Assembly: GCA_965237675.1 (NCBI GenBank)
Contig: OZ250150.1
Coordinates: 3,552,001-3,616,000, forward strand
Direction of reading: 5' to 3'
Source: Candidatus Latescibacterota bacterium
GTDB lineage: Bacteria; Latescibacterota; UBA2968; GCA-2709665
DNA length: 64,000 bases
Both the position numbers and the translations under genes were made by a program. Positions 32,016 through 36,685 of this stretch are shown here, piece by piece; within the stretch, counting starts at the first letter, position 1; every line of letters begins with the position of its first letter. The notes under the pieces are model-generated. The model searched no databases. It had not been told where the DNA came from and worked only from the letters and a program-made list of their open reading frames with translations.

Positions 32016-32914
32016 ACCCATCGCATCATCCAAATCCGGGACCAACCTTGGAAGCAGTGGGTTCACGGGTCCTGTCGGCTGGCGGTTGGGGCGGCCTGTT
32101 CTGGAAACGGCTCCTGAAGAACCGACTCGCGGCCGTCGGGGGTATCCTCCTGTCGGGATTCCTGTTGCTGGCCATCGCCGCGCCCCTGGTGGCGCCACAT
32201 GATCCTCTTGCACAGAACTTGTACGAACGCCTCCAACCCCCGTCGCTGGCGCATCCGTTCGGTACGGACGATTTTGGCAGGGATGTTCTGAGCCGAGTCG
32301 TCCATGGCGCGCGGATTTCGCTTCGCGTGGGTGTTGTCGCGGTCCTGATCGCGCTGGTGGCAGGCGTTCCGATCGGGCTGGTGTCGGGATACTGGGGAGG
32401 CGCGCTGGATCAGGCGTTAATGCGTGCGATGGATCTGATGCTCGCATTCCCCAGCATTCTACTGGCCATCGCCATTGTGTCGGTTCTGGGACCGGGGCTG
32501 GAAAATGCGATGCTGGCAGTTGGAATTGTTGCGGTACCTCAATATGCACGTCTGGTGCGCGCGTCTGCGCTGGTCGTGCGTGGACAGGATTATGTTCAGG
32601 CCGTGCGCGCGCTTGGCGCGGGGGATTTTCAGATCCTCTTTTTTTCTGTTCTCCCGAACTGCCTCACACCCCTGATCGTACAGTCTACGTTGGGTCTGGC
32701 TACTGCCATACTGGATGCGGCGGGGCTGAGCTTTCTGGGATTGGGGGCGCAGCCGCCGGTGTCCGAATGGGGTGCGATGCTGACCGGCGGGCGGGAACTG
32801 GTTCTGCGGGCGCCGTGGGTATTGACCTTTCCGGGTCTGGCGATTTTTCTGACCGTATTGGCGTTTAATCTGGTCGGCGATGGTCTTCGGGATGCTCTGG
32901 ATCCAAAAGCCTGA
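32012..32914 (+). CDS. dppC: Dipeptide ABC transporter permease
   Basis: HPFGTDDFGRD, LSFLGLG..P..EWG and GDGLRDALDP; GTG overlaps the dppB stop. Confidence 0.9.
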   Translation: MNPSHHPNPGPTLEAVGSRVLSAGGWGGLFWKRLLKNRLAAVGGILLSGFLLLAIAAPLVAPHDPLAQNLYERLQPPSLAHPFGTDDFGRDVLSRVVHGARISLRVGVVAVLIALVAGVPIGLVSGYWGGALDQALMRAMDLMLAFPSILLAIAIVSVLGPGLENAMLAVGIVAVPQYARLVRASALVVRGQDYVQAVRALGAGDFQILFFSVLPNCLTPLIVQSTLGLATAILDAAGLSFLGLGAQPPVSEWGAMLTGGRELVLRAPWVLTFPGLAIFLTVLAFNLVGDGLRDALDPKA

Positions 32915-33147
32915 TACGGCATGTTGCATATCCGGCAGACGGTAAGTCGCCAGGACCGGGACCTGCCGCTGTGCCCCGCGAAGGCCCGATCGCTGAATCA
33001 CGTTCCGGCGACGGACGCGTGAGACAACCCACGTCCAGGCGTAGCGTGCAGGACATAGAATAAGTATTTGTTATTTAAGGAATTTGTGCTTCATGAAGAT
33101 GGACGCGCGCTCACAGTATCCTGGAAGCCCGAGGCCTGAAAAAGCGT

Positions 33148-33176
33148 TTGACTTCTCCGTTCCGGTGGCGTATATT
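33148..33176 (+). promoter_or_regulatory. Sigma70-like promoter of the micro-ORF/structured RNA unit
   Basis: TTGACT(33148-33153)-17 bp-TATATT(33171-33176). Confidence 0.7.
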
Positions 33177-33204
33177 TTCGTTTACACAGAAAGGAGGTGG
33201 TCGA

Positions 33205-33240
33205 ATGAGCGAAATGACCAGTGGAGGTGGCTGTAGTTAG
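33205..33240 (+). other. Micro-ORF MSEMTSGGGCS (11 aa) with very strong Shine-Dalgarno
   Basis: AAGGAGGT at 33191-33198, ATG 33205, TAG 33238-33240. Confidence 0.45.
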
Positions 33241-33439
33241 GTGCGCTGCCGGGTGCGGGAGAACATCTCGTCTGGTAACGCGCCTGGCGAATCTAAACAG
33301 CCATCGAAAGACAGGCGATCCGTCGTTCCGACGGGCCCCGGCGATGTTGGCGGGGTACCGTGAGATGGAGGCCGTCTCGAGATTTGCGCCGTGATGAGAT
33401 GTGGCCGGACAACCGGCTCCCAAATCGCGGCGCATTTTT
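33241..33439 (+). ncRNA. Candidate unclassified multi-stem RNA with possible pseudoknot
   Basis: Nested stems 33242-49/33427-34, 33257-60/33418-21 and 33263-72/33393-402; hairpins 33281-86/33312-17, 33320-25/33329-34, 33336-40/33351-55, 33362-68/33372-78 and 33404-08/33413-17; ends in a T5 run. Confidence 0.55.
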
Positions 33440-33460
33440 CTGTCCTATAAGGGTTTGTAC

Positions 33461-33489
33461 TTGACAAAATCAAGCGAGCCCTATATCTT
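33461..33489 (+). promoter_or_regulatory. Sigma70-like promoter of the rplM operon
   Basis: TTGACA(33461-33466)-17 bp-TATCTT(33484-33489). Confidence 0.65.
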
Positions 33490-33570
33490 TTGGGGCTAAA
33501 TATTGCGTGGAATTGTCGTAGAGAGGAGGTGAGTTCGAACGCGGCGTCTAAGGGGACGCCGTTCGGATTT

Positions 33571-34005
33571 ATGAATACGCCAAGCGCTAAAGCGTGCGAC
33601 GTTGATCGCAGATGGTTTCTGGCTGATGCCGAGGGTAAGGTGTTGGGTCGCTTCGCAAGTGAGGTCGCTCGGATTCTGATGGGAAAACACAAACCATTTT
33701 ATACGCCGCACTTGGATACCGGCGATCATGTCGTTGTGGTAAACACCGAAAAGCTCGTTGTCAAAGGCGCCAATAAACCGGAACAGAAGGTTTATATGCG
33801 TTTTAGCGGATATCCAGGTGGCCTGAAAACCAAGACCCTCAGGCGGGCGCTCGAGACACAGCCCACGTTTGTGCTGGAGCATGCCATACGAGGGATGTTG
33901 CCGCGCACGAAACTGGGGCGTCGGATGATGAAGAAGGTCCGGATTTACGCGGGTCCCAACCATCCACACGAGAGTCAGTTGCCCGAAGCGATTGACTTTA
34001 CTTGA
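33571..34005 (+). CDS. rplM: 50S ribosomal protein L13
   Basis: WFLADAEGKVLGR, GKHKPFYTPHLDTGDHVVVVN, SGYPGGLK and RGMLP. Confidence 0.97.
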   Translation: MNTPSAKACDVDRRWFLADAEGKVLGRFASEVARILMGKHKPFYTPHLDTGDHVVVVNTEKLVVKGANKPEQKVYMRFSGYPGGLKTKTLRRALETQPTFVLEHAIRGMLPRTKLGRRMMKKVRIYAGPNHPHESQLPEAIDFT

Positions 34006-34060
34006 AATCCGCCAGATCCAACCATTGTTGGATAATTGTTGACCGAGAGGAGGTGGGGTC

Positions 34061-34453
34061 TTGGCAGAGATCCTTGCTTCTGCAAAAGGCCGGCGCAAGT
34101 CGGCAACGGCAAACGTAAAGCTCGTTCCGGGATCCGGAGAGATTATAATCAATGGGCGGCCGATTCTTGATTATTTGAAGCGCGAGACGCTCGTGATGAT
34201 CGTGGAACAGCCGTTGGCGGTTACGGAGACGATTGGCCAGTACAATATCGTCGCCAGCGCCAAGGGGGGTGGTCTCAGCGGCCAGGCCGGCGCCGTGCGG
34301 CTGGGTATCGCGCGTAGCCTGCTTGCCCTGAACGAAGACCTCAGGAAACCGCTGCGCCAGGCCGGGCTGTTGACTCGCGACGCACGCGAGGTGGAACGAA
34401 AAAAGCCAGGGCGCCCCGGGGCACGCAAACGGTTCCAGTTTTCAAAACGATAG
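34061..34453 (+). CDS. rpsI: 30S ribosomal protein S9
   Basis: [29 protein letters not shown] and QFSKR; TTG start after GGAGG. Confidence 0.97.
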
Positions 34454-35408: not shown

Positions 35409-36008
35409 ATGGCTATTTCTGCGAAGATGGTTCAGGAACTACGGGCTAAGACCAACGTGGGGATGATGGATTGCAAACGAGCCCTCGTTGAGAGTGACGG
35501 GGATATGGAGAAAGCCATTGAGCTTCTGCGGACCCGTGGCATTGCCAAGGCGGAAGACCGCGCGCACCGGGCGGCGAAAGAAGGGCTGATCACGTCGTAC
35601 ATCCACACAGGCAGCAAGCTGGGGGTGCTGCTGGAAGTCAACAGCGAGACCGATTTTGTTGCGCGAACGGACCAGTTCCAGGCTTTTGCCCGGGATCTCG
35701 CAATGCACATCGCGGCCAGCGCCCCCATCGCCGTTGGCCGCGATGAACTGGATGAGTCAAACGTCGAGCGCGAACGCAGGATCTTCAGGCAGCAGGCGCT
35801 GGATGACGGCAAACCCGAGCGGGTTGTCGACCGGATTGTAGAGGGGCGTTTGGAGAAGTACTTTCAGGAGGTCTGCCTCATGGAACAGCCCTTTGTAAAG
35901 GATCCGGACAAGACGGTCAGAGACCTGCTGATGGAACTGATCGCCCAGTGCGGTGAGAATGTGACCATCCGGCGGTTTGTGCGGTTTGTTCTCGGTGAGG
36001 ACAGCTAG
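35409..36008 (+). CDS. tsf: Elongation factor Ts (short 199-aa form)
   Basis: GMMDCKRAL, EVNSETDFVA and AMHIAA motifs. Confidence 0.97.
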   Translation: MAISAKMVQELRAKTNVGMMDCKRALVESDGDMEKAIELLRTRGIAKAEDRAHRAAKEGLITSYIHTGSKLGVLLEVNSETDFVARTDQFQAFARDLAMHIAASAPIAVGRDELDESNVERERRIFRQQALDDGKPERVVDRIVEGRLEKYFQEVCLMEQPFVKDPDKTVRDLLMELIAQCGENVTIRRFVRFVLGEDS

Positions 36009-36127: not shown

Positions 36128-36685
36128 ATGGTTGACGAGATTCTTTCAGAGACCAGGCAGACAATGGCAAGAACCGTGGAAGCATTTCAACACGAAATCG
36201 CCACCGTTCGGACTGGTCGGGCAAACATGGCGTTGCTGGAAAATATTCGCGCTGAATACTACGGCTCCAAAGTGCCGCTCAACCAGGTGGCCACTATAGG
36301 CATCCCGGAGCCGCGGCTGATTGTTCTTCAGCCGTGGGACAAGAGTGCAATCCCCGCAATTGAAAAGGCCATACAGACGTCGAATTTGGGTCTGACGCCG
36401 TCCAACGATGGAACGGTTATTCGTTTGCCGATTCCACACCTGACGGAAGAGCGCCGTGCGGAACTCGTACGCGTGGTTCGCCAGATGGCGGAAGAGTGCA
36501 AGGTTTCCGTGCGCAATGCCCGGCGGGACGCCAACGAGATGTTCAGAGATGGTCAGAAGGAAGGCGAGATTCCCGAGGACGATTCCAGGAAGGGACAGGA
36601 ACAGGCGCAAAAGCTGACGGACGATTTCGTAGCCGAGATTGACAAGCTGCTGGCGCGAAAGGAAGAGGAAATTATGGAGGTCTGA
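36128..36685 (+). CDS. frr: Ribosome recycling factor
   Basis: RTGRAN, LGLTPSNDG, LTEERR, VRNARRDAN and KEEEIMEV. Confidence 0.97.
   Translation: MVDEILSETRQTMARTVEAFQHEIATVRTGRANMALLENIRAEYYGSKVPLNQVATIGIPEPRLIVLQPWDKSAIPAIEKAIQTSNLGLTPSNDGTVIRLPIPHLTEERRAELVRVVRQMAEECKVSVRNARRDANEMFRDGQKEGEIPEDDSRKGQEQAQKLTDDFVAEIDKLLARKEEEIMEV

Follow-up and report, generated by a model that had tools for sequence, protein, structure and literature searches.

A small RNA gene upstream of rplM

The element considered here occupies positions 33148-33439 on the plus strand of a 64-kb window, the whole stretch of 64,000 nucleotides of Candidatus Latescibacterota DNA that was analysed and whose numbering is used throughout; it is a small gene, predicted to yield an RNA of ~256 nt (~33184-33439) that ends at an intrinsic terminator and contains an open reading frame (ORF) of 11 codons. 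Downstream lie rplM (encoding L13, with its ATG at 33571) and then rpsI (S9), both 3' of a second promoter-like site. The near-consensus promoter named by the original prediction is present and is kept as TTGACTT..TATATT in 30/30 aligned loci from the taxonomic order of the host (hereafter, the order); two promoter-like sites, that of the small RNA and that of rplM, fall within 1.3 kb where 0.8 would be expected, and in other phyla comparable -35 and -10 boxes stand at an equal distance upstream of an ACAC tetranucleotide. About 7 nt after the -10 box the sequence reads ACACAGAAAGGAGGTGGTC, followed by the ATG at 33205; ACAC is invariant in the alignment of 29 order copies, and the Rfam model RF02471 and the model R1 (both described below) begin at the same point. 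A DNA search recovered the element from 40/41 genomes of the order, the sole miss being a 92%-complete genome in 70 contigs; it is single-copy in the window's genome, and its best-conserved part, 33184-33307, shows ~86% identity between the order's two families.

Table 1. Coordinates of the features of the element and of the neighbouring promoter
Feature	Position	Strand	Description
Sigma-70-type promoter of the small RNA	33148..33176	+	TTGACT-17-TATATT; 10/12 consensus matches
Putative RNA 5' end, ACAC	33184..33187	+	A at 33184 ~7 nt past the -10 box; placed from promoter spacing
SD1, AGAAAGGAGGTGGTC	33188..33202	+	Complement of the own-genome 16S rRNA 3' tail
Hairpin P1 (GGTGGTC / GACCAGT)	33196-33202/33216-33222	+	RNAalifold and minimum free energy folds; masks the 3' half of SD1, start codon in loop
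Mini-ORF MSEMTSGGGCS	33205..33240	+	ATG, 10 codons and TAG (33238-33240)
SD2, second SD-like box, GGAGGTGGCTG	33223..33233	+	Inside the ORF, 4 nt upstream of the stop
Helix P2a, long-range	33226-33234/33297-33305	+	Alignment fold; masks SD2
Helix P2b	33236-33240/33284-33288	+	Alignment fold; contains the stop codon
Hairpin P3, three stacked stems within P2	33242..33283	+	Alignment fold; variable between phyla
Conserved 3'-side bulge of P2, GAATCTAA	33289-33296	+	Alignment fold
Domain P4	33309-33324/33364-33377	+	Alignment fold; specific to the window's order
Helix P4b, inside the P4 domain	33331-33339/33353-33361	+	Alignment fold
Intrinsic terminator	33386..33439	+	Stem 33386-33398/33421-33433, conserved internal loop GAGATG, apical hairpin, T5 at 33435-33439
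rplM-rpsI promoter (context, outside the RNA)	33461..33489	+	TTGACA-17-TATCTT; kept in most aligned loci

The original prediction described an ORF followed by a separate folded RNA of ~195 nt. The structured RNA, which is GC-rich, its terminator stem and the T5 tract are all found, however the ORF is not upstream of the structure but embedded in it, since P1 has the start codon in its loop, and P2a and P2b incorporate the final codons and the stop. Folding of 33240-33439 is better than that of shuffled sequences, as expected from the prediction, with z = -4.67 and 0/200 shuffles as good on the plus strand; the minus strand gives z = -1.64, with 12/200 shuffles as good. An order-level fold obtained with RNAalifold from 29 distinct full-length copies counts 68 pairs, and compensatory change is seen at 23; the share of paired alignment cells is 97.2%, compared with 30-44% after sliding of the 3' partners, and the observed covariation score and percentage paired were reached by 0/500 shuffles. 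Homologues and covariation thus both bear out the predicted RNA. The single-sequence minimum free energy (MFE) of 33184-33439 is -118.2 kcal/mol, and this fold features the same helices as the alignment fold.

A family-level fold was derived from 98 sequences aligned to R1, an alignment that is model-fitted and hence biased toward R1; within this limit, 87.7% of the core is paired versus 32-57% when slid, and 6/6 pairs of P2b are changed on both sides in a compensatory manner. P1, whose cells are 100% paired within the order, shows GC in 89 sequences and AU in 7 at its pair 21-86, and the closing pair of P2a (104-293) is CG in 34, UG in 24, GC in 12 and UA in 6 sequences. Compensated P2a variants among the model-found matches include GGUGCCUG with CAGGCCACC, GGUGACUG with CAGUUCACC, and GGUGGCG with CGCCACC. 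P3 exhibits only wobble changes within the order, and its length ranges from ~30 to ~130 nt in other lineages. In the P4 domain 14/19 pairs are changed on both sides among the 29 order sequences; this domain was not seen in the actinobacterial, acidobacterial and planctomycete versions inspected. The terminator carries AU<->GC and CG<->AU compensatory changes, in 13 sequences each.

A pseudoknot or kissing loop between CATCG (33302-06) and CGATG (33342-46) had also been suggested and is rejected; both strings exist, however CATCG belongs to the 3' strand of P2a and is kept in 17/29 sequences versus 3/29 for CGATG, with no covariation between them. The long ORFs that overlap the element, minus-strand frames of 114 aa and 151 aa and a plus-strand frame of 57 aa, were discarded as well, being Pfam-negative and interrupted in many relatives. 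In members from outside the window's order, a GUCC box ~23 nt after the 3' strand of P2a could pair with GGAC of the P1 3' strand; the box occurs in 71/85 distinct sequences of this kind, and the flanking pair is standard in 39/71 (G-C in 14/16). Such a pairing would form an alternative helix that frees SD1; it is suggestive only and is not used as support here, and no equivalent of the GUCC box was found in the window's order.

Two 16S-complementary boxes and a mini-ORF

The 16S gene of the same genome ends ..GGATCACCTCCTTTCT, and the very strong Shine-Dalgarno (SD) sequence AAGGAGGT precedes the start of the mini-ORF; both the SD and the ORF had been correctly read in the original prediction. 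The predicted duplex between SD1 and the 16S tail has 15 bp including one G.U and an energy of -26.4 kcal/mol, the strongest among 6090 SD-like 20-mers of the window; the complement comprises 12 perfect bases, the G.U and then 2 more bases, with the ATG 2 nt further on. The 12-mer AAGGAGGTGRTC has three occurrences in the 5.6-Mb genome, namely the element, the 16S gene and one further site. In both the alignment fold and the MFE fold, SD1 is unpaired at 33188-33195 and held in P1 at 33196-33202; the G at the G.U position is able to pair with either partner, the 16S tail or P1. The further AAGGAGGTGATC site (G000 C1:1614569) was considered as a possible copy of the family and rejected, as it has no SD2 and, from reading of the sequence, apparently falls within a coding region.

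SD2 is invariant within the order and is a hallmark of the family; its pairing with the 16S tail is predicted at -15.0 kcal/mol. The masking strand, on the 3' side of P2a (CAGCCAUC; CAGYCACC elsewhere), resembles the GAUCACC of the 16S rRNA.

The reading frame was surveyed in 148 loci collected first and then in 194 loci including model-found ones, which represent 141 distinct cores; part of these loci come from a pattern scan that listed at least 118 stretches. In each of the 148 first loci, a start codon located 2-12 nt beyond SD1 shares its frame with a stop that follows GGCTG by 3-6 nt. In 133/141 distinct cores, the first ATG, GTG or TTG after SD1 opens a frame that ends 0-10 nt after SD2; the remaining 8/141 are of the Acidimicrobiia type and have an in-frame CTG at a fixed position. 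ORF lengths of 11, 12, 13, 14, 16, 17, 18 and 19 codons occur across the family, and inside the 133 canonical-start ORFs, stop triplets number 138 in one of the other frames and 217 in the second. As many as 141/141 distinct cores carry a stop triplet 4-7 nt past SD2, and each of the three kinds occurs: position +6 has 95 TAG, 10 TAA and 10 TGA, with 22 cores at +5 (the window's order), 3 at +7 and 1 at +4.

The peptide does not follow this pattern of conservation. The RNA box SD2 is read in three frames according to lineage, giving ..EVAxx in most, ..GGGCS in the window's order and ..RWLxx in planctomycetes; since the frames differ relative to SD2, the peptide is not the conserved thing. Within the order, codons 5-10 (ACC AGT GGA GGT GGC TGT) are invariant including at synonymous sites, except in L174, which has ACT, and codons 2-4 vary non-synonymously. 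Sequence comparison therefore indicates that the existence, the length class and the end point of the frame are selected and that the peptide is not; the description of the element as a non-coding RNA, if taken to mean purely non-coding, is not upheld, as the reading frame is under selection.

The Acidimicrobiia-type loci (L038, L044, L054, L087, L107, L111, L127, L148) share a conserved in-frame CTG 3 nt after SD1. L038, L044, L087, L107 and L148 contain, in addition, an internal GGACCAC(C) box that complements the 3' half of SD1; L111 and L127 have an imperfect form of it, and L054 has none.

Homologues and comparable systems

A search with 4227 Rfam models gave 0 matches at the gathering level in the 64-kb window, in line with the failure of the original prediction to find a likeness to tmRNA, RNase P, SRP, 6S or the common riboswitches, none of which has a match within 32900-33620 at E <= 10, a level reached in that interval by Ms_IGR-5 and a chance-level CC2171 match only. 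The Rfam check proposed with the prediction is thus negative at the gathering level, however it does reveal a weak match to a known family: in a relaxed search, RF02471 (Ms_IGR-5, "Actinobacteria sRNA", where sRNA denotes small RNA) aligns to 33184-33323 with 25.7 bits (E 8e-4 in a 721-nt search), and the genome-wide score of the element is 25.7 bits also. Relatives in the order score 39-41 bits (sister family), and one genome (G128) reaches 46.6 bits, above the cut-off. The model R1 is composed of 27 members, all from outside the window's order, at least five of which (L083, L089, L035, L038, L148) exceed the RF02471 cut-off; it matches the window end to end at 33183-33308 with 50.1 bits (E 3e-13), and the next match in the 64 kb has 9.8 bits. 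Because of this end-to-end match, homology of the 5' 125 nt with Ms_IGR-5 is well supported; this part is considered a divergent RF02471 homologue that stays under the formal Rfam threshold, and the element can no longer be called unclassified. It also resembles the published rreB/rreR small mRNAs (PMC5711450). A second sub-threshold RF02471 match in the same genome (L179:1501-1678, G000 C1:4400352-4400529; 30.4 bits) is without the family boxes and was dismissed as a false positive, apparently driven by its terminator.

The wider distribution was approached by scanning a species-level genome collection for a two-box pattern, AAGGAGGTGGTC and GAGGTGGCTG separated by a gap of 8-30, which returned at least 118 stretches, mostly from Actinomycetota among the matches listed; other labels among the listed matches are Blastocatellia, Bryobacteraceae, Planctomycetota/Gemmataceae, Zixibacteria, Sumerlaeota, Syntrophobacter and Ca. 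Latescibacterota, these being metagenome-assembled genomes (MAGs). RF02471 is over its cut-off in 10/19 of the pattern loci tested, scoring 175-179 bits in mycobacteria and 49.6-55.9 bits in MAGs labelled Zixibacteria and Blastocatellia; since it passes there, the stated range of the family (Actinobacteria) is too narrow. The model fails on the planctomycete genome tested. At E <= 0.01, RF02471 detects 40/42 other genomes of the window's order, 0/78 genomes from twelve other families in the window's phylum and 0/14 control genomes. R1 detects the family in 71/141 sampled genomes from the phylum of a Mycolicibacterium (65/135 without six unpublished genomes, all positive) and in 15/121 genomes from the phylum of a Blastocatellia-labelled MAG, two of these 15 looking false positive on reading. 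A MAG titled "uncultured Heliobacteriaceae" (L042, G129) belongs to the same phylum set as the Blastocatellia MAG (L076, G131) and carries an acidobacterial-like element, so its label is doubtful.

Ms_IGR-5 and the window element share one order of parts, namely ACAC, an extended SD AAGGAGGUGGUC, the start-codon hairpin, GAGGUGGCUG, the stop, a variable hairpin, a GAAUYC bulge, CAGNCACC and the terminator, and both are free-standing genes with their own promoter. They differ in the ORF, which has 12 codons in Ms_IGR-5 and 11 in the window, where it is read in another frame relative to SD2; the window element furthermore has an additional P4-plus-terminator domain of ~130 nt and, unlike Ms_IGR-5, is linked to rplM. 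Its host is not actinobacterial, the nearest relatives being labelled Gemmatimonadota (96% S2 identity) or Ca. Latescibacterota (92%).

In Mycobacterium smegmatis, IGR-5 (ncMSMEG15794c) is described in the available parts of two reports as a validated, uncharacterised sRNA between MSMEG_5794 and MSMEG_5795 (bioRxiv 10.1101/2021.12.14.472595; PMC10454040); its transcription start site is an A by NAD captureSeq, and it is among the NAD-capped RNAs (bioRxiv 10.1101/2021.12.14.472595). Homologues of IGR-5 are validated by RNA-seq in S. lividans and form an sRNA transcription unit in S. avermitilis, as far as the accessible text of these sources goes (PMC8079986, PMC8780764), and significant ribosome-protected reads are noted for the homologues of M. 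abscessus and M. smegmatis in the portion available of PMC4974804. The review PMC4109619 does not mention IGR-5; literature searches, whose coverage ended short of the supplements of PMC5711450, PMC4974804 and PMC10454040, found no functional study, either of Ms_IGR-5/IGR-5 or in follow-up of rreB.

By analogy of design, the closest functional analogue of the element is the small mRNA rreB/rreR of alpha-proteobacteria (Hahn et al. 2016, RNA Biol), described here from the available text of PMC5711450. The rreB mRNA of Bradyrhizobium is 165 nt long, has 17 nt complementary to the 16S end and a 14-codon frame starting with GTG; most of it is bound to ribosomes, it sediments together with 30S subunits, its translation is weak and its stability depends on the start codon, and its function is termed "elusive" (PMC5711450). 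The rre genes and the window element are alike in being small stand-alone mRNAs with their own promoter (RpoD-type in rre) and terminator, in carrying a short ORF (14-18 codons in rre, 11 in the window element), in their complementarity to nearly the whole single-stranded 16S 3' tail, in that only the 5' nucleotides of the complement are unpaired and the rest lies in a conserved first hairpin, and in a genomic context that is not conserved between clades (PMC5711450). They differ in RNA length, 165 nt for rreB and ~256 nt here; in rre the complement is a perfect 16-17 nt that runs into the GTG, whereas in the window it has 15 bp with one G.U and the ATG comes 2 nt later. Peptides of rre are reported as conserved within clades, and SD2 and the long-range helix are not described for rre in the text available; binding to 30S was demonstrated for rreB only (PMC5711450).

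A scan for the rre-type ribosome-binding pattern, a 16S complement running into GTG, gave at least 120 stretches, mostly alpha-proteobacterial among the matches listed. When applied to the first 100 of these loci, R1 did not recognise the alpha-proteobacterial rre loci; it made 3 full-length matches at E < 1e-4, none labelled alpha-proteobacterial. These three, L290:2249-2385, L337:4099-4238 and L357:228-365, are labelled Fibrobacteraceae, Krumholzibacteriia and Acidobacteria respectively, and combine an rre-type 17-nt 16S complement running into GTG with an Ms_IGR-5-type GAGGTGGCG box, a stop codon and a ACGCCACC partner, and may connect the two described families. In Dinoroseobacter, too, a GGAGGTATCC box immediately precedes the stop of rreR, and the comparison suggests that the Ms_IGR-5 family and rre form one wider class.

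Other known systems share single traits with the element. Leader-peptide attenuators of the ermC and cat type have an SD and a short leader ORF, followed by a second SD that is sequestered in a helix opened by the ribosome; here SD2 is itself part of the leader ORF and has no cistron after it, the RNA ends at its own terminator, and neither an alternative terminator/antiterminator fold nor a cistron before the terminator was found. The 5' STAB-SD, as in the cryIIIA leader of Bacillus thuringiensis, is an SD-like 16S complement near the transcript 5' end that is thought to hold 30S; it needs no start codon and sits on a long mRNA, whereas here the complement is followed by a conserved mini-ORF, which is all that the RNA carries. 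With the L13 (rplM) leader RF00555, the point in common is the position upstream of rplM.

Interpretation and genomic setting

The reading favoured, with a fair degree of confidence and from comparative sequence evidence, is that the element is a stand-alone ribosome-engaging mini-mRNA, a divergent member of Ms_IGR-5 from another phylum that bears an order-specific 3' domain. The original prediction had raised the word "ribosome-engaging" as a possibility, and the 15-nt complement to the own 16S 3' tail together with the family-wide mini-ORF fits it. The geometry is fixed, with the start soon after SD1 and the stop placed so that SD2 lies ~7 nt before the last sense codon. It is proposed that the single-stranded 5' part of SD1 (AGAAAGGAGG), which is complementary to the 16S 3' tail, would dock on it; the duplex would then extend to 15 bp by displacing P1 and present the AUG, as proposed for rreB. 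The 11-codon frame, whose selection is apparent from the comparison, would be translated, and the moving ribosome would open P2a and P2b. At the stop, SD2, ~7 nt upstream of the P-site (last sense) codon, could base-pair with the anti-SD, which would give the ribosome a hold at the end of the frame as well as at its start; the conserved AAUC..CAGCCAUC strand would be released, and this state could influence RNA decay, have an effect in trans or keep the ribosome in place. An RNA-ribosome interaction, rather than the peptide, appears to be the best explanation of what is selected, and the role is likely to be the sensing or use of ribosome availability, or ribosome-dependent control of the RNA's own fate.

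It is unlikely, in comparison, that the element is a purely non-coding sRNA acting by base pairing or protein binding, in which the ORF-like frame would be a by-product of RNA constraints and ribosomes would be uninvolved. The family is indeed entered in Rfam under sRNA genes, within the order codons 5-10 are free of synonymous variation (bar one sequence) where codons 2-4 change non-synonymously, the peptide is not conserved between phyla, and part of the stop codon is in helix P2b. A by-product would hardly be expected, however, to keep its frame in 141/141 cores across lengths of 11-19 codons and in spite of the 138 and 217 out-of-frame stops in 133 ORFs, nor to begin always 2-12 nt after SD1; the interchange of TAG, TAA and TGA at one place preserves a stop and not pairing, and the mycobacterial homologue has ribosome-protected reads in the available part of PMC4974804. 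At the other extreme, the element could be the gene of a functional 11-residue micropeptide, MSEMTSGGGCS, the RNA structure only tuning expression. The conserved ORF, its strong SD, the C-terminal TSGGGC(S/R) that is constant within the order and the reported conservation of the rreB/rreR peptides within clades (PMC5711450, in the text available) all speak for this; the constancy of TSGGGC is at the nucleotide level, however, with no synonymous change in 28/29 sequences, other phyla read the same RNA box in the two frames ..EVAxx and ..RWLxx, and synthesized RreB and RreR peptides were unstructured (PMC5711450, same text), all of which makes this account highly improbable.

The position of the element raises the question of whether it is instead a cis-acting leader or attenuator of rplM-rpsI, for example one responsive to L13 or S9, with terminator read-through adding to rplM transcription. 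rplM and rpsI are downstream in 32/32 order loci tested, at a distance of 130-160 nt from the element to rplM; order-specific traits are the P4 domain and the GAGATG loop motif of the terminator, and one 1459-nt contig from an RNA library spans 33205 through into rplM. This contig does not demonstrate a single transcript, however, and a near-consensus promoter is conserved between the terminator and rplM; the original prediction had pointed to this promoter in judging the element probably not to be the rplM leader. In the other phyla the genes next to the homologues are unrelated and often lie on the opposite strand; examples are those for aminotransferase IV and a THAP4-like haem-binding protein (mycobacteria) and for DAHP synthase (planctomycetes), and none of the neighbours is shared from phylum to phylum. 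RF00555 and the other ribosomal-protein leader models in Rfam have no match at the gathering level in the window or at E <= 10 in 32900-33620, and the terminator stem remains intact in folds where the ORF region is held single-stranded or placed under ribosome-footprint constraints, so that no antiterminator was found. Since it has its own promoter and terminator, is followed by a conserved second promoter and elsewhere occurs away from rplM, the element is probably a stand-alone transcription unit; a leader function is accordingly given little credence. Least probable by far is a riboswitch, ribozyme or other catalytic or ligand-binding RNA, the "catalytic" option of the original prediction: a conserved fold of this complexity, with several helices and the conserved internal loops GAAUCUAA and (twice) GAGAUG, would suit it, however no ribozyme or riboswitch model was matched in the Rfam searches described above, with only Ms_IGR-5 and the chance-level CC2171 emerging at E <= 10, the same transcription unit has no downstream gene, and the sequence gives no pointer to a cleavage site.

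Several points weigh against the ribosome-engaging mini-mRNA. The SDs of rplM and rpsI in the window are also very long (-23.7 and -21.3 kcal/mol predicted), so SD1 is the strongest in the window yet not unique in kind. The 25.7 bits of the element fall below the RF02471 gathering cut-off of 45 bits, and homology of the window family with the alpha-proteobacterial rre genes is unproven. Because the sequences within lineages are related, the ORF counts overstate the number of independent events, and ~11 length/frame classes are the safer count. Overproduction of rreB had no growth effect, and its authors doubt a simple titration of ribosomes, according to the available text of PMC5711450. Metatranscriptome evidence for this lineage consists of contigs only, assembled from public runs, from which transcript boundaries and RNA origin are not derivable; short contigs from the RNA libraries of three studies (233, 161 and 196 nt) cover 33141-33322, 33195-33344 and 33200-33391 with ~88-97% likeness and are compatible with a discrete, abundant RNA in relatives without proving it. 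Contig depth (67.8 for the element versus 6.8 for rplM in run X1), uncovered parts and habitat labels were given no weight.

A broader and more tentative idea, which is possible rather than probable, is that Ms_IGR-5-type RNAs and rre mRNAs are branches of one old, multi-phylum class of "anti-SD-capturing" mini-mRNAs whose selected product is the complex of RNA and ribosome, which would directly sense or modulate free ribosomes. If this were true, a 16S duplex of 15-17 bp would hold the ribosome at the start, a second SD unmasked by translation would hold it at the stop, and ribosome occupancy would switch the conformation of the RNA, all of which would have been overlooked because databases list an actinobacterial non-coding RNA. 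The window locus is an ordinary member of its family, and it is the comparison that changes how the family is read: an "Actinobacteria sRNA" is present in MAGs labelled as at least 6 other phyla, and always, in 141 distinct cores, with a translatable frame of 11-19 codons and a non-conserved peptide. The multi-phylum spread, the intact mini-ORF with its non-conserved peptide, the masked second SD and the rre intermediates are drawn from sequence comparison and were not found in print by the literature searches described above. Function can now be addressed in tractable hosts, M. smegmatis or Streptomyces for instance; for annotation, the conserved "intergenic" block upstream of rplM is a gene, and both the Rfam model and its stated range are too narrow.

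Long SD complements are found in the window at rpsI (34040-34063) and rplM (33515-33540), and such complements are lacking at rpsB (-10.5), tsf (-5.1) and frr (-10.9). The rplM SD, GAGAGGAGGTGAG, stands ~40 nt from the ATG at 33571, and the gap holds a hairpin at 33534-33566 (segment ~-27 kcal/mol) that would bring the SD and the start together (window positions 33523-33573); a comparable hairpin is seen in L012, L016, L018, L019 and L022 and is absent in L020, L021, L024 and L162, where the SD adjoins the ATG. Further downstream, the gene next to tsf (35409-36008) is frr (36128-36685); pyrH, which many bacteria carry in between, is not there.

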